Shown: piece after piece, positions 1 to 32,071 of the stretch | Numbering within the stretch: the stretch's first letter is position 1 | How the letters are laid out: the number at the start of each line of letters is the position of its first letter | Source: Candidatus Danuiimicrobium aquiferis | GTDB lineage: Bacteria > Omnitrophota > Omnitrophia > Omnitrophales > Danuiimicrobiaceae | DNA: 64,000 bases | Reading direction: 5' to 3' | Assembly (NCBI GenBank): GCA_001804285.1 | Contig: MHFR01000042.1 | Location: 14,725-78,724 of the forward strand | Made by a program: the position numbers and the translations under genes | Notes under the pieces: model-generated | Database searches by the model: none | Seen by the model: only the letters and a program-made list of their open reading frames with translations | What the model was told of the DNA's origin: nothing

Positions 1-85
1 AGTTTATAAAAATAGGCCGGATGAACTACGGAAAAATACACAAGATGCAAACCGCGTCAGATGGTATTTTGAGCAAATTGCAAGA

Positions 86-3000
86 TTGATTGATCAGGCA
101 GATTCTGAATTTTCAACGATGGACAGGGATCAAATTTCGCAACAGGGAATTCTAAGCACACATGAGCAATTTAAGCGGCATTTTCTCGCTTTACTCAAAC
201 GGCACGTGCAAGAATTTCAAGTTCCGATTTCTGAATATGAACTCCGGACATTCGTTTTAAAATGTCTAAAAGCTCCGGACTCACTTGATAAAGCGCTTCG
301 GGTAGAATTCAATTCCTTGTTGGATGAATTGGGAGCACTCAATTATCTCAAGATGGGCGAGTTGGCAGAAAGTTTTCAAACGTTAGCCGGCCGTTATGAA
401 GAATTAATAAAAGCCGCGGACAAAAAATGGATTCTTTCGGAGACGCGCGACCGAGTACAAATAGCGCAAAAAATTGCCGAAGACTTCGCCGGATTTGCGA
501 TAGATCCCAAGGATGAAGCGCGTAAGGTTTATGGACAAATGAGACGGAGCTCTATCCAGCGAAAAATTTTAAATCGGTTATCGCCGGTTCTTGCGGCTCA
601 TCAAGAGTTGCTTCAATCCGGATTGGAAGAGATTTACTTAAAAATTGATCTGGAAGAGAAAAATCGATTACGCAATCAATTCCATGCAAGCGATGTTCAT
701 GCCGCGGTGTTGGCTTATCTTCCGGAAGCGTTAAGGCCTTTATTTAATCTTGTGATTCAAACGATTGTTAAAAGACAGCCCGAAGATATTTTTGTTCATC
801 AGGCCGGTTTTCGGCTTGAATATTTTTTCGGACAGATCAATTTAAATGCGCGGAGCGCGGATCTTCTAAAAGATTTGAATCTTGTCGCGTATGCGGCGTG
901 GGAAATATTCCAAGCCTTGCCGCAAGTGGTGGCGGGGGCACGTTCCGAAGCGCGCAAAATTAGTGATAAGGCATCAGTCGTAAGGCATAAGAATTTAACT
1001 TATGCCTTAAGCCTTAAGCCTGAATTTTCGAGAGCCGAAGCGCGCAATACCCCGATGCGGCTTGACGTGACATTTCAAGGGACACCGTACAGATTTGAAA
1101 TGGATTCATGGAGTGTTGGCCAGAATCCCTCTCAATATCGGTTTCGATTATCGCAGGGCGTGCAGCACCGGGGCTATCTGATTGTTGATTACGATCAGCA
1201 AACAATCGGTTGGGAAGGGAAAGAACAGTTCCCGCGCGGTACGTTAATGGATCCGTTTTTAAAAGTGGCTTATGAGGCGTTGAAGGTAGATGAGAACAAA
1301 CGATCGGAAGTGCGGATGAAAGATAGTTCCGAGTTCCGGGGTAAAACAAAGAGATCAACTCGGAACTTTAAACTCGAAACTCAACCCCGTGCCCAAGTTC
1401 GTAACAATAAAGATAGTTCCAAGCAATTACCAATCGAAACGGACGAGAGTCCTCGCGAGACACAAGAGGCTCAAGCGAGGGCCGAAGCGCGGGGAATCGA
1501 ACAACAACTGGTCGGCACCTTTTTGCAAATGGCTTTATTTCATATACAGGACAACGCATCGCTTGCAGTTATTATAGAAGGTCCCGCGCCCAGAACTTTC
1601 TTTGAGGATCAAGACCAGCCGGAAGCAGTAGTTAATCGAGCGATAGGGCTTTTACAATCAATTTATGATCAAGTCAGAAGGGAGTCTCCTGACGGCAGCG
1701 GCGCTCCGTTTATTGTGAGAATGATGGAGATTTTGGGACGACCGACAGAACTGTTGCCAATGGACTTAGCTGCTGCGAAAAAATATTTTGCTTCTTCTGG
1801 TGAAGTGGCGGAAATAAAAAGCGAAAAGAAATTTGATCAATTTGAAGCACTTATGCCGGGCTGGCTTGCAAAACATCCGCCTTTTCTTTCGCAGTTAATT
1901 TCGGAACTTCCACCAATGGACGAAATCCAAAGGAAACATGGTGCCGCTCAAATACATACTGAAAATAGATATGCTGCCGGACCAATGAAACTTTTGGAAT
2001 GGAGTGTTCTGTTTGCAGGAAGTCCTCTGCGGCCCATTTATTATTATTTTGATTCAGATCCGGAATCGGGCGACATTGATAGCGTTACGGAAGTGGTTTT
2101 CGATTTAGCAGCTTATTTGAAAAGAGGGAAGTCCGGCGCGCATACGCTGATTTCGAGCGAAGAAATTGGGAGTCTATTCAAACAATTGGGACGATCTGAA
2201 GGAGCGACTCGATGGGTTATGACGGCTTCTTCTCCCGGTAGTTGGCAGAGCCGGATTAGCGTTACGCCAAGCGCTCAAGGGATGATGATTAAGATTGATG
2301 ACAATCATTTGGAATTTGATCCAAACACTCCTGACGATGAAGACGGCAACAAATTAATTAATTTTCTGAGGCAATATGGAATTGAGGAGCCGTTTTTTGG
2401 ATTGCCATTTCCGAAGCATGATGCTGCGACCACTGAGATAGCGCAATTTCTCGCCGATGTTTTTAAAGCCCGCGATGCGTTGCTTCGGAAATGGCGTATC
2501 CGGGCGAGTTTTGATCAGAGTTCCGGCCGAGTGACTTATGAAGCTGAAGGTGAAACCGTTTCTACGGATTTTGGTTACCAGGTTCCAATTCTTTCGGACA
2601 ACGGGGTTGTAACAGGGACGACGAAGGGGCCGGTTGAAGCAGAAATTAAAGACTTTCTTATGAAATTGGGAATTGATTTTAAGCCTTATGCGCAAGGGTT
2701 AACGATTCAAATGACTATCGGAAATGAGAATTATGATTTGGATGTGATCCATCATTTGCCTATCACGCTTGTAAAACTTGCTGAAGCTTTAGAAGCAAAA
2801 TCCAAAATGCCTTTCAGCGGTCACGGCCGGACAGTACCTGCGCTGGGAGTGTTAAATCAAGCAGGAGCTGTGCAATTGGTGACAGGCAGCTTAGACAAAA
2901 CCGTTCGTTTGTGGGACCTATCCACGGGTAAAGAAAGTAAGAAATTTGAAGGTTTCGCGGACGAAGTGACTGATGTTACCGTATCGCGTGACGGGCAGAA

Positions 3001-6000
3001 GGTGGCGGCGGCAAGCAAAGACGGCACGGTGAGGATTTGGAATGTCCAGTCAGATTCCGAACCAATCGTCATCGATACGCTTTCCGGGCCCCTTACTTCC
3101 ATTGATTTTTCTTTTGACGGCCAAAGGATTCTTACCGGCAGTAAACGCGGTGCGCTGCAACTTTGGGATGTGTTAATCGGTCGCTTTGTGGATGATTTGC
3201 CGATAAAGGCAAGAACAATTTTTGATGCCCAATTTTCTCCGGACGGACAAAGGATGGCTTCCTTATCCCATTCTATGGAAGATGGATTAAAGCTTTCCAT
3301 ATGGGACGTGCCTCAAAAGAAAATCATACGAACATTAGATCATGAGGCCTATCTGCAGACGTTTGCTTTTCATCCGAATGGCAAATGGTTGGTGACGGGA
3401 GATCAGGACTATCAAGTTTGTTTGTGGGACATTGAAACAGGCAGTAAACTCAGAACTTACCAGTCGGCCGTGAAACCCTTTGCTGTTGTTAATATACAAC
3501 CGCGCATTTTATCACTTGCCTTTTCTCCGGATGGGAAACTGGTTGCGGCCGGGAAACTGGATGGCAGTATTGAAGTGTGGGACGTTGAAACCGGCGGATC
3601 TCGTTACCTTTTCCAGAATTTGCCATTTAATGTTCCTACTTTAACATTTGCTCCGGATGGCCAATCTCTTATTTATTCAGGGTACAGACATAATGATACT
3701 TTTTTTGCGCCCATGCCGAGGATTATTGACTTGAGGCGCTATCCACAAACTTTCGTTTCGCATCGATATGGAAGAAGCGTTTCAAATGACGTGAGGCACT
3801 TCGTTTCAGGCGGGCAAGACATTACCCGTTCCGAAGTTCGTGAAGAAGAAGTGGCAGTCGGCAGTCAACAGTCCACAGATGTCATTGCGAGGAGCGGTAG
3901 CGACGAAGCAATCTCAGATTTGGGGATTGCTTCGGCAACACCTGGTTCACGTCTCGCAATGACGGGTAAATCCAGGGCCGAAGCGCGGGAAGGAAGCGCA
4001 CAAGTTCAAAAGAGCACACGTGCACAAGAAAATACGGAAACTTATGCGCCTATACCTGGTGCTCCTGTTCTCTTGCGAAGCAGCAGGTCTGAATCGCGGG
4101 CGGATGTTGATCCTAGGGTTTCTTCAGAACGTCATCGTGGTTCCCGACAACGCGGAGATAAAGGGAGTCGTCCATCCAGTCAAATGACAAACGGTAATGA
4201 ATATCAATTCGCGCTTCCCAAATATTTTTCGTTCCCTGGATTTTCTTTACATGGAGCGATGGATGTCGTGGATTTTCAGCAAGTATTTGGATTTGGCGGT
4301 CAGTTTTCTTTTGGATTGCAGATGGAAGAACTTGATAAAATTTTTGAAAGCTTTCGTAAGCGTATATTTTCACGAGTGGAGAAGTTTCAACAGTTCTTTA
4401 GCCGTGCCATTGCCCAAGATGCGTTTTGCGCGTTTGTTCTGGCTGGCAACGCTTTCTTTGGCTTGCCATTCCTTCGTCCAAAAATAAGCTTGGTCTGGAT
4501 TAATAGCAGAACGGCTTTTCAAGAAGATCGCAAACCTCAACACCTCTTGAGCTTCCGCCTCGGACAGCTGCTTAAAAATGATCGGCAGAATTTTATGAGT
4601 TTTCTTCGTTTCCATGTGCAAAATCTTAACACAGCACTCCATTTTATTCAACAGGAACTAACCGCTCGTTTGGAAATCAGCGGGGATATGGTGAATGGTA
4701 CGACTAATTACCACCAACCACTAATCACTAATCACGGACAAGTGAGGGCCGAAGCCCGCAACCTTGCGGCAGAAAATGGGACATTTTCTGCAATACCAAT
4801 CGAGGCGGGCAAGAGTACTTTTGATGTTTTGCCAGAAGCATCAAAACGTGCCGAAGCCCGGAAATCCGTGATATTAAGTTCGGGTAGAAACGGGAATACT
4901 CAAATTGATATGTTGAATATGGGTGAGAGGAATCCGGCGGCTCGCGTCGAGGATCTCCAAACCGAACACGCGCCCGTCTTTTCCGATGTCCATGATAATA
5001 CCGTCCCGGACTTTAATAGATTTTCCGACCTTTCCGGGTTGAAATCGTATGTAGAGCGCATCCGCTTCTTTATCAAATTCTATTTTCATCGGTTAACCCT
5101 TTTCCTCGAGCCAATAAGCCGTTATCAAAACCGTTTGATCCGCTTCCTTTTTGTAGACGACTTCCAGAATGTTATCATAGAAACGCTTTCTCGCCAAATA
5201 TCTTCCTCGATGAGCTTCTTTGGCGTTATCGGGACAGGTTACCGTTTCTTCGATCTGGCGTTGACTCAAATCCCGCTGCAAAATCCGTTTCTTGATATGT
5301 TTCGTGTATCTGAAAGTCATGAGTATCAGCTTCCATTATTAAAGAATAGGCAGCATAATAAGCCAGAAATGACTAATAATCAATATAATTATGCAGCAAA
5401 ATCAACCCGCTCCGAAGCGCGCCACGCTGAGGATAGCACCCAAGAAGTTTTTAATCAAAGCGCGCAAATGTCCTCGATACCGTCAAAATTGTTTACATCG
5501 AGGGCCGAAGCCCGCAACCTTGAAGCGGAAAATGGGACATTTTCTGCAACACCAATCGAAGCGGGCAAGAGTACTTTTGATGTTTCGACAGAAACATCAA
5601 AACGTGCCGAAGCGCGGATGCTTAAAGGTTTTAATACAGAGCAAAAAGCAATTATCGAAAAGACAGCGCATAAGCTGATCATGTTGTTCTTTTCTGACAA
5701 ATCCGTCACGGAACAGAATGCTTTGGAAAAAGATTTGATCAGCCGGATCCATCCCGCGACGTTGAGGCGGGTTATCTTTAGCAAAACAACTCTCATGACA
5801 ATCTCATGGACCCTGTGTATATCGGTCCTGCCGTTTGTTTTTCATCTATATAAATTAGTTGCTGTGTTTGGTTTTTTTGGCCTTTTTGCTCTGGGAAAGA
5901 TATTGGATCAGACCCTCAATGAAGAGACGCTGGGCTTTGTCAGCAAAGCCTATCCCGAAATATTTATCGGAACAGAATTGCCCGGATTTAAATTTGAACG

Positions 6001-9000
6001 CGGGGTCATTCATGAAATGCTGCACGTGTTGGCTAAAATGAAAAAAATTAAATATGATTCCCCATTCGCTTCCGCATTCGGCTTTCTGGCGGAGCATACT
6101 TCCTCGGATCCCGGGAAACCGCAGCTTTCCCCTTATCTGAGGCGTCCTGTTGGCAATTTGGGGGAAGGGATGGCGTTGGTTGAAAAAAATTTATCACCTC
6201 AAGAACGATGGGGGGCCTTGATTGCAAAATCGCTTTTTTCTGACAATTCTGAAAACATAACCAAACAAGATCCACGTGACTTTTTTGTCTCTTTAGCGCA
6301 TTGGTTGGAACCTGAAACGCGGGAATCCCGGGTATTGGGGGAATTATTGTCTGGGATGGCTTATGCCCTATCTCAGAAGAATTGGTTTGGTCTCGAGGAT
6401 GCGTGGGTTTATTTGGCCCGCATGGCAAAAGGAGAGCATCCTTTTGCTGTAGAAGAAGACCTAAACAATAAACAAAAAGAAAGAATATCCCATTCCAAAT
6501 TCCGCTCCGAAGCGCGCCAAGAGAGCGCACAAGAACACAAGCGCACAGGGACACAAGTAGAGATGAAAGCTGACGCGCCTGTGCCTTATGCTCCCATGCT
6601 CTTACGAAGCAGGGCCGAAGCGCGTTACAGCCGCAATAATCCAGAGCAGTCATCAATCGAAACGCGCAAGAGTCCTCGCGAGACACAAGAGGCTCAAGCG
6701 AGGGCCGAAGTGCGCGACGATAAAGACAGTTTAAAGCGTTCATCAATAGGAAGTGCACGAGAGTCCTCGATACGTTCCGAAGGGCTTGTATCGAGGGCCG
6801 AAGCCCGGACAATCTCAGAGCAAAAACGCTTTAGCCTGACACTGGAACACGTGAAGCCGCTTATTGAAAGAATTGCTGACACAGCCTATTTCCGTTGGCT
6901 TGCTAGAGATAAAGACAGCAGAACCGGTAAAAATGAAGGATTCGAAAAAGTGCAATGGCGGCGCTTGATAGATATTTCTGATCGTGCATGGGATCTTGAA
7001 AGTATGAGGCGGGAAGCATTAGGACAACTAGAAAAGTCCAATATGAACCCGGAATATTTAGAAAAAATAAAAAGCGAAACAAAAATAGAAATAATTATTT
7101 TGGAATATTTCGAGGAAGTTTTAGGGAGTTTAATCGGGAAATTAGAGTCTCCATTGAAATTGTCATTGAAAATGTTTTTGTTAAAAGCATACCCGCGTTC
7201 TGGGGAATGGACGGACTCTTTATTGGAAGAGGGAGCTATCGAAGCTGCGCGGAAAGAATATTATGACATCATTAATGAAATACTTAAGTGGCTTGATCCA
7301 ACATCAGTTTTGGAACGAGTTAATTCTCCCGAAGATTATCGAATTGATGTTTTAGGGCGGCCCAAGGATGGAGATATCCCTCGGATGGTTGACTTTCGAG
7401 GCAAACTTATCGCCAGAGAGAAAAAAGCCAAGCACCGAGCACCGTTTGCTTTTCGAAACGAACGGTTTGATACGATGATTCAAATTGGTCCCCAAGGCCT
7501 GGAAGAAGAAGAGATGCGCTTTCTTCAAAGTGCTTTTGATGAAAAGCCTGAAACTGATTCAGCCCCTACATTTTATGCCGTATTTTTTCCTCCATTTAGC
7601 TATTTATTGATCAGGAGATCGGTAATTAAGCAACGCGTAGTTTTCGATGTTGTTCCGGGTCGATGGGAGAAAGCGGTTCCGAATCCTAAAAAAATGCTCC
7701 CCTTTTTTATTAAGCGAGTGATCGATTACTATCAATTATTAGATAATCGCAAACCTCCTCAGATTTTGCTCGAGTTAGCTACGATCCCCATGCATTGGAA
7801 TGAAAGAAAGGTTCTTTTTGAGGAAAGCTATTTTGAGCCAGGTGATCCGGATTTTCGATCTGCGGCAACAACATATCCAGTACATTTTGAAAATGTATTG
7901 CGTAAGATTCGCTCCCGTTCCGAAGCGCGCCACCTTGAGGATAGCAATGATGTCATTCCCGCGAAGGCGGGAATCCAGCTGGATCCCCACTTTCGTGGGG
8001 ATGACACCGATTCCCGTGCCGAAGTACGTTCACAGATAGAAAAGACAAAACCCGAAAGTCCGATGGATTTGGTATTCGAGACTTTAGATCCACAAAAAAT
8101 AGCTGCTCAGATTGCAGCATCTAAGTATATAGAAGGTGAACTTGGAGAATTGAGCGCTCAAGTCACAAAAACAGGGCAAGGCAAACTGGATTCTGCGAAA
8201 GTCGAACTGGGCGCATTTTCGAAAAATTTAATAACAGAAATTAATAAACGTTCTGAAGTAAGACAAATTGCGGATTTTATATTTTCCGACGAAATAGAAC
8301 AGATGGCCAAGGATAGGGTGAATTTGTCATTCCCGCATGCTGTAAGCGGGAATCTATGGATCCCCGCTTTCGCGGGGATGACGGACGTGCTTATTAATCG
8401 TGCGCGTCTGGTTGTTTTCAATTCTGTTATTGGAGAGAATATTGCGATGGCCGATGAAGCATTACCAGCTTTGAGTGAGATCTCAAGCGAAGCGGCATTT
8501 TTACTCGCGCATCCGGATATTTTGAATGAAGCATATCGAATCAAATTTGGAAAAAGAACAGACAATGCAACCATACGCGCCGATCACGAATGGATCATCG
8601 GCATGGAATTTTTACCTCAAGCGTCAGATCCGCGGAGAATGGCGGCTGAACAGTTTTTGCGGAATTTAGTGCAAGCAAAAGACCGGGTGGCATTGACTTA
8701 TCAAAAAAATTCTCCTTACGCCGATATGGCAAGCGAGTTATCACAATCAATTCCGCAATTGTCACTTGTGGGGCACCGGTCAGATCTTGATCAAAAGAGA
8801 TTCGAAAGAGTATTTGGTATTTCGTATCCGTTTGTTATTGTGTCGGATAGCGTACCGTTTAAGACATCAACATGGCGGAAAAACGGAGTTCGCATTAATC
8901 CATATATGGCGCTTCGGTTGAAATTGGAATTTTCACAATTTATACGGCTGACACAATTTGCTGTCGAAGCCGGACTTCTCCGGAAGCAAATAGAAGAAAT

Positions 9001-9112
9001 TTCCGGAGTTTTTCCAGAATTAACACCTGAAATTCTTAATTCGGCTATAGATCTTCTGAATGAGCTTGCTCAGACGGAACTTGTTAGGCAGGCAATTAAT
9101 CGGGCGGCGTAA
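86..9112 (+). CDS. Giant (~3000 aa) multidomain protein with a central 7-blade-type WD40 beta-propeller; interrupted in-frame by repeat modules, MITEs and antisense TA cassettes
   Basis: A single 9027-nt open frame cannot arise by chance at this GC. WD40 repeats (LWD/IWN/VWD motifs with GH..WD spacing) lie around aa 930-1200. Non-repetitive segments look like ordinary globular protein. The start is uncertain: TTG at 86 or ATG at 119. A terminator hairpin plus T-run follows at 9176-9232. Confidence 0.6.
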   Translation: MIDQADSEFSTMDRDQISQQGILSTHEQFKRHFLALLKRHVQEFQVPISEYELRTFVLKCLKAPDSLDKALRVEFNSLLDELGALNYLKMGELAESFQTLAGRYEELIKAADKKWILSETRDRVQIAQKIAEDFAGFAIDPKDEARKVYGQMRRSSIQRKILNRLSPVLAAHQELLQSGLEEIYLKIDLEEKNRLRNQFHASDVHAAVLAYLPEALRPLFNLVIQTIVKRQPEDIFVHQAGFRLEYFFGQINLNARSADLLKDLNLVAYAAWEIFQALPQVVAGARSEARKISDKASVVRHKNLTYALSLKPEFSRAEARNTPMRLDVTFQGTPYRFEMDSWSVGQNPSQYRFRLSQGVQHRGYLIVDYDQQTIGWEGKEQFPRGTLMDPFLKVAYEALKVDENKRSEVRMKDSSEFRGKTKRSTRNFKLETQPRAQVRNNKDSSKQLPIETDESPRETQEAQARAEARGIEQQLVGTFLQMALFHIQDNASLAVIIEGPAPRTFFEDQDQPEAVVNRAIGLLQSIYDQVRRESPDGSGAPFIVRMMEILGRPTELLPMDLAAAKKYFASSGEVAEIKSEKKFDQFEALMPGWLAKHPPFLSQLISELPPMDEIQRKHGAAQIHTENRYAAGPMKLLEWSVLFAGSPLRPIYYYFDSDPESGDIDSVTEVVFDLAAYLKRGKSGAHTLISSEEIGSLFKQLGRSEGATRWVMTASSPGSWQSRISVTPSAQGMMIKIDDNHLEFDPNTPDDEDGNKLINFLRQYGIEEPFFGLPFPKHDAATTEIAQFLADVFKARDALLRKWRIRASFDQSSGRVTYEAEGETVSTDFGYQVPILSDNGVVTGTTKGPVEAEIKDFLMKLGIDFKPYAQGLTIQMTIGNENYDLDVIHHLPITLVKLAEALEAKSKMPFSGHGRTVPALGVLNQAGAVQLVTGSLDKTVRLWDLSTGKESKKFEGFADEVTDVTVSRDGQKVAAASKDGTVRIWNVQSDSEPIVIDTLSGPLTSIDFSFDGQRILTGSKRGALQLWDVLIGRFVDDLPIKARTIFDAQFSPDGQRMASLSHSMEDGLKLSIWDVPQKKIIRTLDHEAYLQTFAFHPNGKWLVTGDQDYQVCLWDIETGSKLRTYQSAVKPFAVVNIQPRILSLAFSPDGKLVAAGKLDGSIEVWDVETGGSRYLFQNLPFNVPTLTFAPDGQSLIYSGYRHNDTFFAPMPRIIDLRRYPQTFVSHRYGRSVSNDVRHFVSGGQDITRSEVREEEVAVGSQQSTDVIARSGSDEAISDLGIASATPGSRLAMTGKSRAEAREGSAQVQKSTRAQENTETYAPIPGAPVLLRSSRSESRADVDPRVSSERHRGSRQRGDKGSRPSSQMTNGNEYQFALPKYFSFPGFSLHGAMDVVDFQQVFGFGGQFSFGLQMEELDKIFESFRKRIFSRVEKFQQFFSRAIAQDAFCAFVLAGNAFFGLPFLRPKISLVWINSRTAFQEDRKPQHLLSFRLGQLLKNDRQNFMSFLRFHVQNLNTALHFIQQELTARLEISGDMVNGTTNYHQPLITNHGQVRAEARNLAAENGTFSAIPIEAGKSTFDVLPEASKRAEARKSVILSSGRNGNTQIDMLNMGERNPAARVEDLQTEHAPVFSDVHDNTVPDFNRFSDLSGLKSYVERIRFFIKFYFHRLTLFLEPISRYQNRLIRFLFVDDFQNVIIETLSRQISSSMSFFGVIGTGYRFFDLALTQIPLQNPFLDMFRVSESHEYQLPLLKNRQHNKPEMTNNQYNYAAKSTRSEARHAEDSTQEVFNQSAQMSSIPSKLFTSRAEARNLEAENGTFSATPIEAGKSTFDVSTETSKRAEARMLKGFNTEQKAIIEKTAHKLIMLFFSDKSVTEQNALEKDLISRIHPATLRRVIFSKTTLMTISWTLCISVLPFVFHLYKLVAVFGFFGLFALGKILDQTLNEETLGFVSKAYPEIFIGTELPGFKFERGVIHEMLHVLAKMKKIKYDSPFASAFGFLAEHTSSDPGKPQLSPYLRRPVGNLGEGMALVEKNLSPQERWGALIAKSLFSDNSENITKQDPRDFFVSLAHWLEPETRESRVLGELLSGMAYALSQKNWFGLEDAWVYLARMAKGEHPFAVEEDLNNKQKERISHSKFRSEARQESAQEHKRTGTQVEMKADAPVPYAPMLLRSRAEARYSRNNPEQSSIETRKSPRETQEAQARAEVRDDKDSLKRSSIGSARESSIRSEGLVSRAEARTISEQKRFSLTLEHVKPLIERIADTAYFRWLARDKDSRTGKNEGFEKVQWRRLIDISDRAWDLESMRREALGQLEKSNMNPEYLEKIKSETKIEIIILEYFEEVLGSLIGKLESPLKLSLKMFLLKAYPRSGEWTDSLLEEGAIEAARKEYYDIINEILKWLDPTSVLERVNSPEDYRIDVLGRPKDGDIPRMVDFRGKLIAREKKAKHRAPFAFRNERFDTMIQIGPQGLEEEEMRFLQSAFDEKPETDSAPTFYAVFFPPFSYLLIRRSVIKQRVVFDVVPGRWEKAVPNPKKMLPFFIKRVIDYYQLLDNRKPPQILLELATIPMHWNERKVLFEESYFEPGDPDFRSAATTYPVHFENVLRKIRSRSEARHLEDSNDVIPAKAGIQLDPHFRGDDTDSRAEVRSQIEKTKPESPMDLVFETLDPQKIAAQIAASKYIEGELGELSAQVTKTGQGKLDSAKVELGAFSKNLITEINKRSEVRQIADFIFSDEIEQMAKDRVNLSFPHAVSGNLWIPAFAGMTDVLINRARLVVFNSVIGENIAMADEALPALSEISSEAAFLLAHPDILNEAYRIKFGKRTDNATIRADHEWIIGMEFLPQASDPRRMAAEQFLRNLVQAKDRVALTYQKNSPYADMASELSQSIPQLSLVGHRSDLDQKRFERVFGISYPFVIVSDSVPFKTSTWRKNGVRINPYMALRLKLEFSQFIRLTQFAVEAGLLRKQIEEISGVFPELTPEILNSAIDLLNELAQTELVRQAINRAA
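937..1047 (+). repeat. Repeat cluster 1 inside giant ORF: 2 copies of degenerate direct repeat (core CCGAAGCGCG) flanking a ~80-nt palindromic module
   Basis: The two repeat copies are 'cgttccgaagcgcgc' and 'gagagccgaagcgcgc'. The spacer holds a perfect 11-bp hairpin, taaggcataag/cttatgcctta. The translation is in frame: ARSEAR...SRAEAR. Confidence 0.6.
1300..1497 (+). repeat. Repeat cluster 2: 3 degenerate repeats and 2 modules (~73 and ~77 nt); second module is a near-identical copy of one at 6655-6715
   Basis: Repeat copies are 'cgatcggaagtgcgg', 'cccaagttcgt' and 'gggccgaagcgcgg'. Module 1 holds a 10-bp hairpin, gttccgagtt/aactcggaac. The module 'caatcgaaacg..agtcctcgcgagacacaagaggctcaagcgagggccgaag' recurs about 95% identical at 6655. 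Confidence 0.6.
3828..4100 (+). repeat. Repeat cluster 3: 3 degenerate repeats (ccgaagttcgtg / gggccgaagcgcgg / tctgaatcgcgg) with ~130 and ~100-nt modules, immediately upstream of antisense TA cassette 1
   Basis: In-frame translations are RSEVR, RAEAR and RSESR. The module peptide 'YAPIPGAPVLLRSSRSESR' resembles 'PVPYAPMLLRSRAEAR' at 6570-6625. Confidence 0.5.
4113..4373 (-). CDS. Type II toxin, RelE/ParE family
   Basis: 86 aa. The C-terminal region reads 'NPRHPSLHVKKIQGTKNIWEARIDIHYRLSFDWMDDSLYLRVVGNHDDV', typical of RelE/ParE. The start overlaps the stop of the upstream antitoxin by ATGA. It lies antisense and fully inside the giant ORF. Confidence 0.7.
   Translation of the reverse strand: MKIYAYESFQKFYQVLPSAIQKKTDRQIQILAENPRHPSLHVKKIQGTKNIWEARIDIHYRLSFDWMDDSLYLRVVGNHDDVLKKP
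4370..4651 (-). CDS. Antitoxin, DUF2281-like, partner of RelE/ParE toxin
   Basis: 93 aa, immediately upstream of and overlapping the toxin gene. The motif 'EAQEVLRFAIFLKSR' resembles DUF2281 antitoxins. Confidence 0.5.
   Translation of the reverse strand: MNKMECCVKILHMETKKTHKILPIIFKQLSEAEAQEVLRFAIFLKSRSAINPDQAYFWTKEWQAKESVASQNKRAKRILGNGTAKELLKLLHS
4740..4866 (+). repeat. Repeat cluster 4 between the two TA cassettes: 'gagggccgaagcccgcaacc' + ~90-nt module + 'cgtgccgaagcccgg'
   Basis: The module 'gaaaatgggacattttctgcaataccaatcgaggcgggcaagagtacttttgatgtttt' recurs about 95% identical at 5533-5590. The motif gggccgaagccc can form a GGGC-CGAA-GCCC hairpin. Confidence 0.6.
4874..5089 (-). CDS. 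DUF2283-family protein (putative antitoxin of DUF4258/DUF2283 pair)
   Basis: 71 aa. 'MKIEFDKEADALYIRF...GKDGRVFGLEILDAS' matches the DUF2283 signature. It follows the DUF4258 gene with a 3-nt gap. Confidence 0.7.
   Translation of the reverse strand: MKIEFDKEADALYIRFQPGKVGKSIKVRDGIIMDIGKDGRVFGLEILDASRRIPLTHIQHINLSIPVSTRT
5093..5320 (-). CDS. DUF4258-family protein (putative toxin of DUF4258/DUF2283 pair)
   Basis: 75 aa. 'MTFRYTKHIKKRILQRDLSQRQIEETV...VLITAYWLEE' matches DUF4258. It lies antisense and fully inside the giant ORF. Confidence 0.7.
   Translation of the reverse strand: MTFRYTKHIKKRILQRDLSQRQIEETVTCPDNAKEAHRGRYLARKRFYDNILEVVYKKEADQTVLITAYWLEEKG
5400..5620 (+). repeat. Repeat cluster 5: 'gctccgaagcgcgcc' / 'gagggccgaagcccgcaacc' / 'cgtgccgaagcgcgg' with ~80 and ~85-nt modules (duplicate of module at 4760-4845)
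   Basis: Directly read from sequence. In-frame translations are RSEAR, RAEAR and RAEAR. Confidence 0.6.
6500..6815 (+). repeat. Repeat cluster 6: 5 degenerate repeats with ~95, ~75, ~60 and ~15-nt modules (includes copy of ESPRETQEAQA module)
   Basis: Repeat copies are 'gctccgaagcgcgcc', 'agggccgaagcgcg', 'gagggccgaagtgcgcg', 'cgttccgaaggg' and 'gagggccgaagcccgg'. Confidence 0.6.
7915..8035 (+). repeat. Repeat cluster 7: 'cgttccgaagcgcgcc' ... 'cgtgccgaagtacgt' flanking an in-frame copy of MITE family A
   Basis: The in-frame translation is 'RSEARHLEDSNDVIPAKAGIQLDPHFRGDDTDSRAEVR'. Confidence 0.6.
7951..8005 (+). repeat. MITE family A copy (double hairpin gtcattcccgc-gaag-gcgggaatcc / ggatcccc-actttc-gtggggatgac) inserted in-frame in giant ORF
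   Basis: The same element occurs in intergenic regions at 11529, 17724, 25221, 31967 and 39010. It has outer gtcat..atgac inverted ends. Confidence 0.8.
8326..8382 (+). repeat. MITE family A copy inserted in-frame in giant ORF (translates SFPHAVSGNLWIPAFAGMTDV)
   Basis: The sequence is 'gtcattcccgcatgctgtaagcgggaatctatggatccccgctttcgcggggatgac', almost identical to the intergenic copy at 31967-32030. Confidence 0.8.
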
Positions 9113-9175
9113 AACATGGAAATTCATAAAAAACAGTAGGCAGTTGCCAGTCGGCAGTAAGCAATTAGCACTAAG

Positions 9176-9232
9176 AAAAAAGGGGACACACAGCTCGACC
9201 AATTCGAACAAGCTGTATGTCCCCTTTTTTTA
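9176..9232 (+). terminator. Rho-independent terminator after giant ORF
   Basis: The stem is ggggacacacagc / gctgtatgtcccc, followed by a run of 7 T. It is nested in a larger imperfect palindrome spanning 9140-9280. Confidence 0.7.
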
Positions 9233-9436
9233 CTTTTTGCTATCCTGTATGTGCAGACTGCTGCCTGCCGACTGCTTACTCTTTTCCCCAACTTACTTAT
9301 TGACTAAATTTATCTGCATATTATAATCATACCACTTTTTAAAGACTTTTTATTCCACTACAAAGTACCAGTTTTTTAATGTTTCAAAAGCTTAAAAAGT
9401 TCTATTTATAAGCTACTTAAAAAGAGAAGGCTTACT

Positions 9437-11413
9437 TTGTTTTTGTTGTTAAGATTCCTCACCCTAACATTGTTCTTTCTCAATGTTTTTGGCTGCCGCG
9501 AGAAATCGTCACCGTCCGTTTTAGACAGCATTCCTCAGGGGAAAAGTTTACTTTCCATGTCGAATTTTGAAGTGATTGATCATTTCAATGTTGAGAATGG
9601 GAAAAATCAATTCAAACAAACCTGGAAAATTAACATTCCAACCGGTGCGGAAATTAAATTAAGCCGGGATCCCGAGGATGCGATTTATCACGGAGGTTCG
9701 CTTGGCGTAGAATATTCTATTCCCCCGAACCAGACTGCGGGCATATCCACGACGTTTAAAACACTTGATTTAAGCCGGGCCGAAACGGTGTTAATGTTAG
9801 TCCGTTCAGAGGACTTGAAAAATTATAGCGGCCGGCTGCAGCTGGTTCTTCGGGATCAGCGGGATAACAGGCAAGAAATCGATATTAAAAAATATGTCGA
9901 AGAAACCCGCGGCAACTGGGAAAAAATATTGATTCCGAAAAAAGATTTTGGGAAAATCAATTTCGACCAAATCGGAGAAGTTCAAATTGAATGGCGCGCC
10001 GGAAGTAAACCCGTAGCAGGCAAGATGGCAATTGATGAGATTGCGTTTGCTGGGCCGAAGGAATTGATTTTTGAATCAATGCTCGACAATTTAAAAGGGT
10101 TCCCGAAAGAAGCCATAGCCGAATCTCGGCGAAAAGAATTGATCGGGACAAAAGATGAAAAAGAGTTCCTCGGAAAAATCGCGGCAGATACATGGAAGTA
10201 TTTTGAAAATGTGGTGGACAAGAAAACAGCGCTCCCCGAGGATCATATTCGTACGGGAAGAACGCTTGCGATCGGAAATTACACGGGACCGACCAATATC
10301 GCTCTTTATTGGCTTTCGTGTGTCGGTGCTTATGATCTTTCTCTGATCTCTGAAAAAGTGGCGATCGAGAAAATTAAAACATCGCTCGATACGCTTGCCG
10401 GCATGGAGCATCCGGAATACGGTTTTTATTATAATTTTTATGAAACACACACGCTTCGCGCGACGAAGCGTTATTTATCGACCATTGACAATGCGTGGCT
10501 TGCGGCGGCTCTTGTAGTTCTTCGGCAGGCGTTTCCGCAGGAATTCAGTGCCCGGGCGAATGAGATTTTCAGCCGGATGAATTTTTCGAAATTTTATGAT
10601 GAAGCAAACGGCCAGTTAAGAATCGGATTTGATGAAGACTTAGGGGAACTATCGCCGTATCATTACGGCCTTCTCGCTTCTGAAGCGAGGCTTGCAAGTT
10701 ATATCGGAATCGGAAAAGGGGATTTAAAACAGGAACATTGGGCGAGGATTTACCGGACGTTGCCGAAAGAATGGAACTGGCAGAAACAGGTTCCGCAGGG
10801 AAGCCCGAAGGTTTTATTGAACGTTCCTATATTTCAGGGGTTTTATACATACCGCGATAAGAAATTTGTACCAAGCTGGGGCGGATCGCTCTTTGAATAT
10901 TTAGCGCCGACACTCGTTGTGGATGAGCAAACATACGGTCGCGAAAATTTGGGCAGGAACAATGAAATTGTGACAGATCTACATATCTTATATGCCATCC
11001 GGGATAAGAAATATCCTGTTTGGGGCATTGCTCCGTGCGCGATTCAATACGGGAGAAATTGGCAATATAAAGAATATGGGATTCCGGAATTAGCCGCAAA
11101 AGGATATCCGGACGAAGGAGTGGTTGCGCCGTATGCGAGTTTTCTTGCGCTCGCGACACGGCCCAAAAATGCGGTCGAAAATTTCCGGAACCTGCTTGCC
11201 GAATACGATGAAATCTACGGCGAATTCGGTTTTTACGATTCGGTGGTTGTCGCGAGCGGAAAAGTGGATCAGCAATATTTATTAATTGATCAAGCGATGA
11301 ATTTTATTGCGATGGTAAATTACCTGAAACAAGGATCGATCACGAAGCGGTTTCATTCGGATCCGGTCGGTAAAAAAGCGGAGGTTTTATTGAAAGAAGA
11401 AAAATTTTTTTGA
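9437..11413 (+). CDS. Secreted lipoprotein, putative (alpha/alpha)6-barrel glycoside hydrolase (GH144/DUF3131-like) with N-terminal CBM-like beta-sandwich
   Basis: TTG start follows an RBS 'agaagg'. A signal peptide and lipobox 'LNVFGC' are present. The N-terminal ~170 aa are similar to the adjacent 203-aa CBM-like protein. The family assignment rests on weak motif memory. Confidence 0.45.
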   Translation: MFLLLRFLTLTLFFLNVFGCREKSSPSVLDSIPQGKSLLSMSNFEVIDHFNVENGKNQFKQTWKINIPTGAEIKLSRDPEDAIYHGGSLGVEYSIPPNQTAGISTTFKTLDLSRAETVLMLVRSEDLKNYSGRLQLVLRDQRDNRQEIDIKKYVEETRGNWEKILIPKKDFGKINFDQIGEVQIEWRAGSKPVAGKMAIDEIAFAGPKELIFESMLDNLKGFPKEAIAESRRKELIGTKDEKEFLGKIAADTWKYFENVVDKKTALPEDHIRTGRTLAIGNYTGPTNIALYWLSCVGAYDLSLISEKVAIEKIKTSLDTLAGMEHPEYGFYYNFYETHTLRATKRYLSTIDNAWLAAALVVLRQAFPQEFSARANEIFSRMNFSKFYDEANGQLRIGFDEDLGELSPYHYGLLASEARLASYIGIGKGDLKQEHWARIYRTLPKEWNWQKQVPQGSPKVLLNVPIFQGFYTYRDKKFVPSWGGSLFEYLAPTLVVDEQTYGRENLGRNNEIVTDLHILYAIRDKKYPVWGIAPCAIQYGRNWQYKEYGIPELAAKGYPDEGVVAPYASFLALATRPKNAVENFRNLLAEYDEIYGEFGFYDSVVVASGKVDQQYLLIDQAMNFIAMVNYLKQGSITKRFHSDPVGKKAEVLLKEEKFF

Positions 11414-11528
11414 TTGAAAAAATGCCCCATGAAATAAAGAATATTTTTTGAGAATAAATTCACAAGTAAACCATTAGTAATTGTTTAGTGTTTCGAAGGG
11501 ATTATCTATAAATGGTATGTTCATTTCT

Positions 11529-11595
11529 GTCATTCCCGCGAAAGCGGGAATCCAGACGAATAGCTGGATGCCCGCTAAAAACATGCGGGCATGAC
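11529..11595 (+). repeat. MITE family A copy (intergenic)
   Basis: 'gtcattcccgcgaaagcgggaatccagacgaatagctggatgcccgctaaaaacatgcgggcatgac'. Confidence 0.8.
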
Positions 11596-11678
11596 AACAA
11601 ATGGAAACTGCCGTTGCTTCAAAACGCTAAATAGATACTTATTAATCAGTAAAGAAACGATTTGAAAGGAGCCGGAAG

Positions 11679-12290
11679 ATGAAAAAGTGGATGGTGGTGT
11701 TATTAGTTCTTTCGTTGTGCGTGTTTGGAACAAGTTTCGCGTTCGCTCAAAATGAAACAGCTTCAGCAGGCGGAGTAGGGACGGAGCTTGTCATTGCTGA
11801 TTTTGATACCGGTGATAAACCAAACAATATCGGTGGCGATTTCGGAGCGTGGGACAAGGATCCAAACGACACGACTCAAGGTTGCAAGATGAGTTTTGAA
11901 GAAAATGATGCGTTGGGTGATTCGTTGGGCTATGCGGTGCGCTTCGATTATGATGTAGACTCTTCGAATCCGGCCTATAACGGTTTTTGGATGAAATTAA
12001 ACGGGTTGGATGCGTCAGCTTACAACACGATTAATCTTTATTTCAAAGGCGAGGGGGAATTTACGAAGCGGGTGAAAATCGAAGTGAAAGATTCAACGAA
12101 CAAGCCTTCTTCATATATTCTTTCGGGGATTACGGATCAATGGCAGAAATTTTCAATTCCTTTTGAAAAATTTTCCCAGATCCAAGATTGGAAAGGGTTA
12201 AGTGAAGTGGTGGTTGTGTTTGATGATATTAATACAAATCCGAAAACCGGGTCGATTCTTTTGGACCAGGTAACGGTATCTGCAGAATAA
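11679..12290 (+). CDS. Secreted carbohydrate-binding-module-like protein
   Basis: An RBS 'aaaggag' and a signal peptide 'MKKWMVVLLVLSLCVFGTSFAFAQ' are present. The beta-sandwich-like sequence is paralogous to the N-terminus of the upstream hydrolase. Confidence 0.5.
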   Translation: MKKWMVVLLVLSLCVFGTSFAFAQNETASAGGVGTELVIADFDTGDKPNNIGGDFGAWDKDPNDTTQGCKMSFEENDALGDSLGYAVRFDYDVDSSNPAYNGFWMKLNGLDASAYNTINLYFKGEGEFTKRVKIEVKDSTNKPSSYILSGITDQWQKFSIPFEKFSQIQDWKGLSEVVVVFDDINTNPKTGSILLDQVTVSAE

Positions 12291-17623: not shown

Positions 17624-17880
17624 TGTCTCATTAACTCCTCGGCGCTCGGACAACGTCCGCCAAGGGCGGCCGAACTCGCGGCGAGGAGTTAATGAGACAA
17701 CTGGTTTACATCTACTCATAATTGTCATTCCCGCGGAAGCGGGAATCCAGACGCCGCTTTGGGCTCCCCGGACTTGTCCGGGGGGGAATGGCGCCCGAAG
17801 GGCGAGCCGAGCAGGGAACGAAAAAATTCCCAGCGAGGCCAGATGTTGGAAGGTGCCCCGGGCTTGCCCGGGGGGAAACC
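17624..17880 (+). repeat. Repeat-packed intergenic region: 19-bp-stem palindrome (ttgtctcattaactcctcg...cgaggagttaatgagacaa), half copy of MITE family A (17724-17750), and two ccccgg..ccgggg hairpins
   Basis: The inverted repeats were read directly from the sequence. The 'ccgaactcgcgg' core recurs at 22054-22080 and 22165-22176. Confidence 0.7.
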
Positions 17881-22080: not shown

Positions 22081-22364
22081 AGCTGCCGCTTATTATCCAA
22101 GCTACGGAAAATTTTGTTCGAGAAAAATAACAATGAAAGAAAAAAGGCGTAACATGGTGGTTATCCGCGAGTTCGGGAAAAGCGATTGACTTTCACTAAT
22201 TAGCTTTTTCCGCTGTCCGTCCTTGAGCCTCATTAAATTTTATTTATTGGGGAAGCTCAAGAACGGTACTGACTACCGAATTAATACTATCTTTGCGTTT
22301 CTTAAATGAAAGTCAGTGCCGAGCGGGAACCACCATGTTGCGCCGGTGGGTTAAGGTGTCTATG

Positions 22365-23789
22365 AAAAAGGAAAAATTTTCCTTTCCACCCAACTTCCTT
22401 TGGGGCGCAGCCACGTCCTCGCATCAAGTCGAGGGGGACAACCGGAATAATGACTGGTGGGAGTGGGAAGAAGCGGACCGGGTGAAGGAAAAATCCGGAA
22501 AAGCCTGTGACCATTGGAACCGGTTTCGTGCGGATTTTGCGCTTGCGAAATCGCTCGGCCACAACGCGCACCGGTTTTCCATTGAATGGAGCCGGATCGA
22601 GCCGGAAGAAGGCATATTCAGCGAAGAAGCGCTTTATCATTACGGTGAAATGATTAAGACGCTCCGGATATTCGGAATCGAGCCGATGGTGACATTCTAT
22701 CACTTCACGATTCCGCTTTGGTTTGCGAAAAAAGGAGGGTGGCTTCTCGATGAATCTCCCGAAATTTTTGCGCGCTATGTGAGAAAGGTGGTTGAAACAA
22801 TCGACACGCCGGTCCGTTACTGGATTACGATGAATGAAATGATGGTGTATGTCTACAAAGGATTTATTGCCGGAGAATGGCCGCCGGGTGAGAAGTCATA
22901 CGAAAAAGCATTTCGCGTGTTGGGGAATTTGTTAAGAGGGCATGTGCTTGCCTACCAAGTCATTAAAGAGATAACCGCCACTCACCCCCTCCACACTAAT
23001 GGCGGGCAAGCTAACCCTCTCCCTCAGGGAGAGGGCAGTCCAAACTCCCACAGGCAGTCCTTGCAGCGAAGCGGAGAGGGCAGTCCAAACTCCCACAGGC
23101 AGTCCTTGCAGCGAAGCGGAGAGGGCAGGGGTGAGGGGTTGGTTGGTGTTGCGCAGTTTTCGGCCGTTTATGCGCCTTGTTCAAAATGGTCGTGGCGGCA
23201 TCGCTTATCGACATGGTTCCGGGCAAAAATGACAAATCATCTTGCAACCGAAGCGATGGTTTACGGAAAAGTGAATTATCCGGGTTTGTTTCAAATTAAA
23301 CTGCCGCGTGCCAGGACGCTTGATTTTATCGGGATTAATTATTATACGCGCTATTTCATTCACAATCGCGGATTTAACGCAGCAGGCCTTTTGGGTGATG
23401 ATTGCACGCTCGAACATCATCGCGATGTGGGCAAGCGAACCATGATGGACTGGGAAATTTATCCTCGCGGACTTTCTCAGCTGGTGAAAGAATTTTCAAA
23501 ATATAAATTGCCGATTTTGATTTCCGAAAACGGAATAGCAACCGCTGATGACAATGAACGCGCGGAATTTATTCAGAATCATTTGGGCGAACTCGCTCGC
23601 GCGATGTCCGAAGGTGCAAACGTCATCGGTTACCTTTATTGGTCCCTTCTCGACAATTTCGAGTGGGCCGACGGTTTTTTCAAACGTTTTGGCCTCATTG
23701 AAATCGATTACACCAACCAGCACCGCCGCGTCCGAAAGTCCGCGGAAAAATTTGCAGAGATTTGTGCTCACGGAGAAATTTTGATATAA
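22365..23789 (+). CDS. GH1 beta-glucosidase carrying an in-frame ~55-aa insertion derived from a palindromic repeat
   Basis: GH1 motifs are intact: 'FLWGAATSSHQVEG', 'HRFSIEWSRIEP', 'TMNEM', nucleophile 'ISENG' and 'WSLLDNFEW'. ATG 22365 with RBS 'aaggtg' is the likely start. Confidence 0.8.
   Translation, partial: KKEKFSFPPNFLWGAATSSHQVEGDNRNNDWWEWEEADRVKEKSGKACDHWNRFRADFALAKSLGHNAHRFSIEWSRIEPEEGIFSEEALYHYGEMIKTLRIFGIEPMVTFYHFTIPLWFAKKGGWLLDESPEIFARYVRKVVETIDTPVRYWITMNEMMVYVYKGFIAGEWPPGEKSYEKAFRVLGNLLRGHVLAYQVIKEITATHPLHTNGGQANPLPQGEGSPNSHRQSLQRSGEGSPNSHRQSLQRSGEGRGEGLVGVAQFSAVYAPCSKWSWRHRLSTWFRAKMTNHLATEAMVYGKVNYPGLFQIKLPRARTLDFIGINYYTRYFIHNRGFNAAGLLGDDCTLEHHRDVGKRTMMDWEIYPRGLSQLVKEFSKYKLPILISENGIATADDNERAEFIQNHLGELARAMSEGANVIGYLYWSLLDNFEWADGFFKRFGLIEIDYTNQHRRVRKSAEKFAEICAHGEILI
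22981..23140 (+). repeat. Family-B GC-rich palindrome plus 48-nt perfect tandem duplication, inserted in-frame in GH1 gene
   Basis: The element runs 'ccctctccctcagggagaggg' ... 'gggcaggggtgaggggt'. The unit 'gagggcagtccaaactcccacaggcagtccttgcagcgaagcgga' occurs twice, encoding GEGSPNSHRQSLQRSG twice. Confidence 0.8.
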
Positions 23790-25081: not shown

Positions 25082-25220
25082 CATAATACTCGTAATAATT
25101 AAATATAAGTCATAAAAAATTCCGGAATATTTTCTCGCGATAACGCACCGGCGGGCAGACAAACGTTTATTCCGTGGCCATGTAAAAAGAAATCATACAA
25201 GTAAAATTGTGGCCTTTCGT

Positions 25221-25322
25221 GTCATTCCCGCGAAAGCGGAAATCCATAGTTCGATGGATCTCCGCTTAAAGCACGGCGGAGCAGTGCTGCTTCGCTGCAT
25301 GAGGGGATGACATAAAGTACGG
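25221..25322 (+). repeat. MITE family A variant with expanded second hairpin
   Basis: 'gtcattcccgcgaaagcggaaatcc...ggatctccgc...gaggggatgac'. Confidence 0.7.
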
Positions 25323-31940: not shown

Positions 31941-31966
31941 AAGCGGTTTCGTAAGTTCGCACAAGT

Positions 31967-32030
31967 GTCATTCCCGCATGCTCTTAGCGGGAATCCACAG
32001 ATAATGGATCCCCGCTTTCGCGGGGATGAC
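31967..32030 (+). repeat. MITE family A copy (intergenic, immediately after rnfD)
   Basis: 'gtcattcccgcatgctcttagcgggaatccacagataatggatccccgctttcgcggggatgac'. Confidence 0.8.
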
Positions 32031-32071
32031 AGATCTTATGAAACCGCTTCGAATAAGTTTTTGGAGAAAAT

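Follow-up and report, generated by a model that had tools for sequence, protein, structure and literature searches.

An apparently maintained Omnitrophota giant gene with modules joined by a recurrent junction peptide and junctions hosting in-frame selfish DNA

Can a bacterial gene remain one functional coding unit when repeats, transposon-like elements, and genes on the opposite strand are embedded in it? The question is raised by the first 9 kb of a 64,000-nucleotide (nt) stretch of contig MHFR01000042.1 (positions 14,725 to 78,724, forward strand), hereafter the window, which carry one giant open reading frame (ORF). The host is "Candidatus Danuiimicrobium aquiferis," phylum Omnitrophota, from Rifle aquifer groundwater; the BioB, SecY, PolA, and HI0933-like proteins of the window are exact matches to proteins of RIFCSPLOWO2_12_FULL_44_17 and RIFCSPHIGHO2_02_FULL_45_28 (Omnitrophica bacterium). 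The ORF is the 3' end of a gene that belongs with the Omnitrophota giant genes, a known class that was discovered only recently and is still unexplained. Post-translational cleavage of these giants has been proposed, with the cleavage points lacking, and whether they act as one chain or as a cut-up product was stated to be unknown (West-Roberts et al. 2023, doi 10.1101/2023.11.21.568195). With moderate confidence, and judging from sequence comparisons, we favor the view that this gene is maintained, that its modules are joined by a short junction peptide, and that the junctions host in-frame selfish DNA.

The segment 86..9112 on the plus strand is a 3008-codon ORF with no internal stops. A sequence-only reading of the window had taken it for a protein of about 3000 amino acids (aa) starting at 86. 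That start was an artefact of the window edge, as the frame is already open at base 2 and position 86 is merely the first TTG encountered. The upstream extension runs for at least 564 nt without a stop in the giant frame (contigs L036 and L037), and products of 7,008 aa (ena:ERZ27254836:k141_2188823) and 7,050 aa (ANAN16-1_SAMN03842439 scaffold_207) have been called, each from a gene truncated by the contig end. Since the frame is open at the window edge and the called products are longer, this is not a ~3000-aa protein. The open frame itself proved genuine: within 2..9112 there are no stops in 3,036 codons, compared with 155 and 217 in the other two plus-strand frames, and a codon model trained on the other window genes scored the giant frame best in 58 of 59 sliding windows. 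The same locus was located on many public contigs through the exact sequences of the neighboring BioB and glucoamylase-like proteins, and a 181-kb contig of the RIFCSPLOWO2_12_FULL_44_17 or RIFCSPHIGHO2_02_FULL_45_28 metagenome-assembled genomes also carries it. At least nine independent assemblies were collinear with the window and ~100% identical to it. Thus, the giant ORF is not an assembly artefact; by the same token, there is no strain variation to exploit. The surroundings are those of an ordinary chromosome, with genes for a glucoamylase-like protein and a ROK protein together with bioB, fabG, fabF, secY, bioA, mnmA, polA, and rho.

The commonest 5-mers of the window protein are RAEAR and RSEAR. 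The motif R-[S/A]-E-[A/V]-R occurs 20 times in the part of the giant ORF inside the window; 19 of these copies are strict, as opposed to none in 18,631 aa of the other open frames of the window. At the DNA level, the core CCGAAGYSCG is present in 14 copies (0.65 expected), all of them on the plus strand, in frame, and within the giant ORF. The motif copies are grouped in eight clusters that divide the sequence into seven modules, which comprise unknown folds, a WD40 propeller, a module with two helices and an HExxH motif, and a conserved alpha/beta tail. The features of the plus strand are as follows.

2..9112, plus strand: 3' part of the giant gene, 9.1 kb of a gene of more than 21 kb (at least 7,050 codons); stop codon at 9110-9112
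2..940, plus strand: module A, the last 313 aa of a ~500-aa module; no family match
941..1045, plus strand: cluster C1, RSEAR, a 25-aa spacer with a hairpin at 969-1021 (z -3.1), RAEAR
1046..1300, plus strand: module B, 85 aa, no family match
1301..1492, plus strand: cluster C2, RSEVR, spacer, RAQVR, spacer, RAEAR
1493..3826, plus strand: module C, 778 aa, a WD40 beta-propeller (nt ~2804-3697) preceded by ~440 aa of unknown fold
3827..4099, plus strand: cluster C3, RSEVR, a long hairpin like a repetitive extragenic palindrome (REP), RAEAR, spacer, RSESR
4745..4861, plus strand: cluster C4, RAEAR, a 29-aa spacer with two hairpins (z -4.9), RAEAR
5408..5617, plus strand: cluster C5, RSEAR, spacer, RAEAR, spacer, RAEAR
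5618..6502, plus strand: module D, 295 aa, two hydrophobic helices and then HExxH (HEMLH, 6011-6025)
6503..6808, plus strand: cluster C6, RSEAR, RAEAR, RAEVR, and RAEAR, with three spacers
6809..7915, plus strand: module E, 369 aa, no family match
7916..8029, plus strand: cluster C7, RSEAR, a spacer with a copy of a miniature inverted-repeat transposable element (MITE) at 7951-8006 (z -4.0), RAEVR
8030..8248, plus strand: module F, 73 aa, unknown
8249..8263, plus strand: single junction motif RSEVR directly before the tail module
8264..9109, plus strand: tail module, 282 aa, an alpha/beta domain ending ..QAINRAA

In residues of the 3008-codon ORF, module A ends at 285 and the others span 321-405 (B), 470-1247 (C), 1845-2139 (D), 2242-2610 (E), 2649-2721 (F), and 2727-3008 (tail). 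Module A starts just past an RSEAR located ~540 nt (~180 codons) upstream of the window. The segments that the sequence-only reading had called globular closely match this motif-delimited map. Its "N-terminal 280 aa" do correspond to a real module, A, although an internal rather than an N-terminal one, since the frame runs upstream.

Spacers between motif copies measure 87-147 nt, and 12 of 12 spacer periods are multiples of 3. Some spacers duplicate others: identity is 92% between 4744-4862 and 5500-5618, 89% between 1418-1491 and 6640-6714, and 75% between 3978-4083 and 6507-6612. Such a pattern could mean that the motif serves as a site of recombination or insertion in the DNA, whether in a cassette system, through integron-like shuffling, or as a long target-site duplication, and that the peptide is a by-product. 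The 14 strict DNA cores, all 14 on the plus strand, are highly uniform, with Ala always encoded by GCC and Glu always by GAA; duplicated cassettes, 74-92% identical, lie between junctions; modules appear to have been shuffled among homologs; and toxin-antitoxin (TA) operons, two of which lie in this ORF, are typical integron cargo. The uniformity of the RAEAR copies indicates that the pattern partly reflects recent DNA duplication and not peptide selection alone. Since recent cassette duplication contributes, the DNA-level and peptide-level readings are not mutually exclusive. Nevertheless, a DNA site with an incidental peptide is unlikely. The first Arg of the right-hand RAEAR copies was retained through two codon families, AGG and CGT. 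A scan of 20 window ORFs, which left aside another 23 of at least 150 aa, revealed no integrase; the boundary, a 15-nt motif in frame, has no attC features, and no attC-like consensus was seen. A reading of the motif as a UUCG/GNRA-type hairpin was also rejected, as pairing is possible only in the GCCCG variants.

Homologous proteins spoke more directly to this point. A full HMMER scan with aa 1845-3008 retrieved giants of 3,661 aa (P0001 and P0016, the difference between which is merely truncation), 4,071 aa (P0002), 2,607 aa (P0005), and 3,306 aa (P0006). P0002 is MBU9888662.1, annotated as a Candidatus Omnitrophota protein. Identity is 33-35% between module D and modules of P0016 and P0002 and 26-31% between the tail and P0005 and P0006. 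The 4-mers RSEV, SEVR, RSEM, and SEMR are the most over-represented ones in both P0002 and P0016, and each protein contains nine copies of RSE[M/V/A/I/L/T]R. The window protein, P0002, and P0016 were cut at the motif, and the pieces were aligned end-to-end. Residues 2-293/295 of module D matched residues 2348-2684 of P0016 and 3224-3539 of P0002; a module of ~205 aa was present four times and a second module three times. All piece alignments began at residue 1-10 and finished within a few residues of the piece end. Codon choice for the motif varies within the P0002 gene (L032): Ser is AGT or TCN, Arg is CGN or AGR, and Glu is GAA or GAG. This synonymous variety argues that the peptide is conserved or selected in P0002 and that no conserved DNA site exists there. 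As judged from these alignments, R-[S/A]-E-x-R is an inter-module junction that marks the borders of independent evolutionary units. The inserts of the window sit at this conserved junction peptide, which stands at module borders in distant homologs too and which the sequence-only reading had missed.

A recurrent peptide at module borders might instead be a docking motif, for example a linear, Arg-containing motif to which the WD40 propeller of module C binds, and so fold or oligomerize the giant chain. Pfam matches above threshold placed the propeller at aa ~907-1204 (PF00400, E 1.9e-33, 113.9 bits, five stretches; PF25173, 204 bits, cutoff 154), close to the aa ~930-1200 proposed earlier, and these matches are WDR5-like. 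WDR5 binds the A-R-[A/S]-E "Win" motif. Several junction copies read A-R-A-E-V or A-R-S-E-A, which we take to resemble the MLL/SET1 Win motifs. We regard docking as very unlikely, however, given that P0002 and P0016 carry the motif and have no WD40 match, and that a boundary or processing role better accounts for a motif that lies exactly where modules meet and is duplicated around junk inserts.

The motif is not universal among the homologs. P0005, P0006, and the neighboring large genes in their genomes contain no RSExR. Their linker-like contexts contain '[small]-S-L-G', tentatively the equivalent of RSExR. In P0003, P0011, and P0014, which are module D homologs with neither RSExR nor SLG, 'LGGI[D/G]' is found near module borders, e.g., before the HExxH module of P0014, and may be a third lineage-specific junction motif. 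Downstream of the two SLG-type giants lie CN_hydrolase, PAD_porph (agmatine deiminase-type), and CARDB-hit genes (L033 15969-18069 for P0006 and L035 14042-16164 for P0005); this synteny is conserved between the two and absent from the window. Homologs have an N-terminal cap with a signal or transmembrane segment and 'IQDAHA..GGFH'; a TraB/GumN-like identity of this cap found no Pfam support.

Closer relatives were not recovered. A BioB scan of the GTDB representatives returned only relatives with 35-47% identity (best, 47%) and gave no synteny information. The first 283 aa had no relatives in GTDB genomes and JGI metagenomes, and the scan with the tail alignment had none either. Word-indexed protein searches, in which the query was the N-terminal 953 aa, the tail, or an alignment of tails, gave no match, the protein itself included.

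With the exception of the WD40 propeller, Pfam recognized no family in the giant plus-strand frame. NCBIfam gave no match, nor did sequence and profile searches of the PDB or an Rfam scan over 1-12000 of the window. In module D, residues H132, E133, and H136 of the HExxH motif are invariant across seven homologs. An AlphaFold2 model of the module (predicted local distance difference test [pLDDT], 82.6) places HExxH on a helix at 123-140, after strands at 106-108 and 115-117. Module D, with its invariant HExxH after two hydrophobic helices, is a candidate protease. Profile and structure searches matched it to no known peptidase family, and its presence does not track the motif, for which reasons we do not assign it a protease role and rejected it as a dedicated junction protease. 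The longest antisense ORF (6048-6812, minus strand, 254 aa) spans module D and C6 and has no family match. Its many 'ALRPS' peptides are what the junction motif encodes when read on the reverse complement, and it is probably a shadow ORF.

The tail is the most widely conserved module. Eight homologous tails, mostly the C termini of giant proteins, end in ..A(R/H/V)AA. AlphaFold was confident in the alpha/beta core, and pLDDT was below 50 for the first ~65 aa, including a MITE-encoded peptide (8325-8385). Structure searches gave no Foldseek match in the PDB for module D and weak matches to GT-B Rossmann halves (E ~1e-3) for the tail. The last residues of the tail (9041-9109) share with P0004-P0008 and P0015 a near-invariant ..LAQTE.ARQA.ARAA-COOH end, which superficially resembles the ssrA-type ..LAA degradation or recognition tag.

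The junction clusters, the TA operons, and the MITE of the tail add up to 2,569 nt, or 28% of the 9-kb ORF. The sequence-only reading was therefore correct about the repeats, MITEs, and antisense cassettes and too low in estimating their share at about 20%. Inserts are mostly bracketed by motif copies, the exception being the tail MITE at 8325-8385. Hairpin elements were recognized in 4 of 11 spacers tested (z-scores of -3.1 to -4.9); the REP-like hairpin of C3 (~3880-3964, z -3.3) encodes the peptide VIARSGSDEAIS..LAMT. The first C6 spacer matches part of P0009 at 51% identity.

The MITE (TGTCATTCCCGC..GCGGGGATGACA) is 56-72 nt long, has terminal inverted repeats, and is present in six copies or half-copies in the 64 kb. 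Two are inside the giant ORF, at 7951-8006 (56 nt, in C7, encoding VIPAKAGIQ..FRGDD) and 8325-8385 (tail). The earlier recognition of MITEs was borne out by the recovery of the same element from four intergenic gaps (11526-11597, 17723-17750, 25220-25249, and 31966-32033; two complete and two partial copies), where it follows the pattern TGTCATTCCCGC..GCGGGAATCCA..TGGATCCCCGC..GCGGGGATGACA. The copy at 31966 is nested within an outer inverted repeat, GAAGCGGTTTC..GAAACCGCTTC. No copy is flanked by a clear target-site duplication, the plasmid collection contained no match, and Pfam scans of the neighboring genes, beyond which no search was made, revealed no cognate transposase. The intergenic copies do not carry the junction motif, which is a further argument against the motif being a DNA-level insertion site. 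Public contigs break exactly at the repeats (4006, 6628, 6683, 8326, 8356, and 11544). Directly after the giant stop codon lies a 156-nt palindrome (9130-9285) whose outer arms resemble 3852-3880 in C3; it holds a bidirectional terminator-like hairpin, AAAAAAGGGGACACACAGCT..AGCTGTATGTCCCCTTTTTT (9176-9230).

The largest inserts are on the minus strand. The stretches at aa ~1339-1553 and 1593-1774 were rejected as protein domains, as the minus strand there contains two intact two-gene operons:

4113..4373, minus strand: ParE/RelE-like toxin ORF, 86 aa, inside the giant ORF; PF24732, E 2.6e-4
4370..4651, minus strand: putative antitoxin ORF, 80-93 aa, codon-aligned antisense; DUF2281, E 2e-3, weak
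4874..5089, minus strand: DUF2283 antitoxin-type ORF, 71 aa, codon-aligned antisense; E 1.4e-16, 60.8 bits (cutoff 23)
5093..5320, minus strand: DUF4258 toxin-type ORF, 75 aa, codon-aligned antisense; E 3.3e-9, 37.3 bits (cutoff 25)

The antisense cassettes noted earlier are thus two TA operons, the ParE-like one putative, with DUF4258 and DUF2283 above the Pfam thresholds and the ParE_like match (21.4 bits) below its cutoff of 24.4. Opposite the operons, the giant frame reads as F-rich segments (aa ~1345-1550 and 1600-1760). The statement that the locus has no toxin motifs holds for the plus-strand frame and fails for the minus strand. Full-length homologs of the ParE-like ORF, 35-40% identical, are located on plasmids and adjoin an AbrB/MazE antitoxin gene; in the window, the putative antitoxin ORF overlaps the start of the toxin ORF by 4 nt. 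The DUF4258 and DUF2283 ORFs, both on the minus strand, are 3 nt apart, and a promoter-like site (5383-5355, minus strand) is found on their side. Each operon lies 13-14 nt past one motif copy, and the operon start is ~90-130 nt before the next. On L033 (4937-5721, minus strand), from another Omnitrophota genome, a DUF2283 gene, a 103-aa ORF, and a helix-turn-helix (HTH) gene are arranged head-to-head immediately upstream of the P0006 giant gene. TA-like modules therefore adjoin giant genes also where they are not embedded.

Is a gene with such contents decaying? In that case the upstream part alone would matter, and the last 9 kb would be junk read-through that has not acquired stops yet. The insert DNA makes up 28% of the sequence, the N-terminal 953 aa of the window part have no homologs, and the cassette regions are weak in coding signal, all of which would fit decay. 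However, the absence of stops in the giant frame and their abundance in the other plus-strand frames speak against it, and the module regions score 0.15-0.37 bits per codon, comparable to ordinary genes. The terminal module is the family-conserved tail, and its ..RAA end is intact. Every insert is a multiple of 3 and free of stops. In the TA island and its flanking clusters (3827-5617), the giant frame has no stops in 597 codons, as opposed to 23 and 43 in the other plus-strand frames. For three of the four TA genes, the codons are in antisense register with those of the giant frame and include no TTA, CTA, or TCA; the TA genes avoid these codons wherever they would create a stop in the giant frame. 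When synonymous codons of the four TA genes were redrawn from the genome codon usage, the giant frame stayed open in 4.6%, 3.9%, 13%, and 17% of the redraws (joint P ~4e-5). The stop-free island, the codon avoidance in the TA genes, and the intact conserved tail would point to selection for translation through to the end. The sequence evidence thus leans clearly toward a gene that is maintained rather than decaying, and we consider decay highly improbable.

Alternatively, the gene could be functionally split. The TA island, with its own convergent promoters, would then terminate or block expression, and the downstream modules would be made separately. On the opposite strand, neither TA operon is disrupted, and a promoter-like site is present; module D starts with Met (ATG at 5618) directly after RAEAR; and codon scores in the island are equal on both strands. 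On the other hand, there is no terminator-like site in 3700-5700. An untranslated island would also leave its stop-free state (0/597) and the synonymous bias of the TA genes without a cause, which counts against a split. Nor does the motif act as an internal start at the M of RSEMR: in position 4, M is matched in frequency by A, V, I, L, or T, with Val often encoded by GTA, and a residue that variable is not a start signal. A split gene is accordingly quite unlikely.

In the reading that we prefer, that of a maintained gene whose junctions host selfish DNA, the product would be a string of independent modules, with R-[S/A]-E-[A/V/M]-R as the link between them. The junction would most likely be an inter-module processing site, with the cut following the second Arg; at the least, it would be a defined linker. 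Between two copies of the junction, sequence would be unconstrained, and genomic junk could for that reason accumulate there: a MITE, REP-like hairpins, spacer cassettes in duplicate, and both of the antisense TA operons in full. Only in-frame, stop-free versions of an insert would survive, such that ribosomes can read on into the downstream modules and as far as the tail. If the junctions are processed, whatever lies between two copies would come off as a harmless peptide, and the extraordinary tolerance of inserts would thereby be explained; a flexible linker would account for the tolerance, but not the bracketing of the inserts by motif copies. We infer junction cleavage from these sequence patterns. 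That R-[S/A]-E-x-R is specifically a bacterial polyprotein cleavage site, with equivalents such as [small]-S-L-G used by other lineages, is possible and is put forward here only tentatively. If so, Omnitrophota giant genes would be strings of separately functioning proteins freed by proteolysis. The peptides between sites would be discarded, and the junctions would serve as cost-free safe harbors for MITEs and antisense TA operons, in effect a protein-level excision of selfish DNA.

Several observations weigh against this reading. No protease for junction cleavage was identified. Module D has no Foldseek match in the PDB, shows only a weak hint of a peptidase family (M78), and is also found in giants that have no R-S-E-x-R motif (P0011, P0012, and P0014). 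The RAEAR copies are near-uniform in DNA, and in the TA island the codon signal of the plus frame is no better than that of the minus frame. All of the contigs found are ~100% identical, and none of the inserts shows presence/absence polymorphism. The module map and the motif counts describe the 3' 9.1 kb, with the N-terminal part of at least 4,000 aa outside this view. Production of the giant protein is itself something that we infer from sequence alone.

How does the locus compare with known systems? It resembles the Omnitrophota giants in phylum, in its very long, multi-module, and mostly Pfam-dark ORF with WD repeats and membrane helices, in the module homologs found in the annotated giant MBU9888662.1, and in assemblies that break inside the gene. 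The part of the gene available has none of the C39 or S8 peptidase, dockerin, and SecA domains of published Omnitrophota giants. Nielsen & Lui 2026 (doi 10.64898/2026.06.07.730766) distinguished "multi-enzyme" and "tandem-repeat scaffold" classes of giants with a cutoff of >=10,000 aa; the present protein has a called length of at least 7,050 aa, below the cutoff, from a gene truncated by contig ends. Neither that study nor West-Roberts et al. 2023 reported a junction or cleavage motif, in-frame mobile DNA, or antisense genes within ORFs, and a full-text literature search for the junction peptide strings returned nothing relevant.

Three other systems offer partial parallels. Rickettsia palindromic elements (RPEs), attributed to Ogata et al. 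in 2000, are reportedly selfish palindromic repeats inserted in frame in protein-coding genes. Like RPEs, the hairpin repeats of the giant ORF are ~60-150 nt long, in frame, and stop-free, adding 20-50 aa in insertion-tolerant regions. Unlike RPEs, they belong to other sequence families and another phylum, are concentrated at a junction peptide and mostly bracketed by it, and are accompanied by whole antisense operons. Polyproteins, both viral ones and multi-core precursors of ribosomally synthesized and post-translationally modified peptides with conserved flanking recognition sequences, likewise have a short peptide that recurs exactly at unit borders, and the spacer peptides of the giant are flanked by two motif copies. 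The giant differs from them in being a cellular chromosomal gene with membrane segments and in that its cleavage is only deduced. Chromosomal integrons are cassette arrays that can carry TA cassettes. The giant gene shares with them cassettes, including TA operons with their own promoters, between short repeated boundaries, but its boundaries are conserved as a peptide in homologs, and the whole array is one ORF.

Two features have not been described for Omnitrophota giants: the conserved inter-module junction peptide and the in-frame colonization of junctions by a MITE, hairpin repeats, and two antisense TA operons, one of them putative. A peptide that delimits homologous modules in several giants provides concrete candidate cut points and a way to split giants for structure prediction and proteomic searches. 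Two intact TA operons and a MITE in frame in a maintained ORF represent an unusual coexistence of selfish DNA and coding sequence, and the embedded inserts offer a natural test of the load of junk that can be borne by a protein linker.

Some other genes of the window deserve mention. In the GH1 gene (22293..23789), L002-L004 have an indel relative to the window at ~23,080, giving a product of 469 aa instead of 484 aa; in L003 the gene is split into ORFs of 232 and 186 aa, a strain polymorphism. On L037 (14557-15402, SAMN03842439), bioB was called at 281 aa as opposed to 332 aa, the sequence diverging past window position ~14,837. A 636-aa ORF at 27643-29553 fuses MnmA (tRNA 2-thiouridine synthase, aa 3-356) to LarE (sacrificial sulfur transferase, aa 372-628). 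Finally, the 823-aa protein encoded at 48968-51439 has a weak match (E 3.5e-13) to the superfamily of nucleoside tri-/diphosphate (NTP/NDP) exchange proteins (ATP/ADP translocases), which would fit the host-dependent lifestyle proposed for Omnitrophota.

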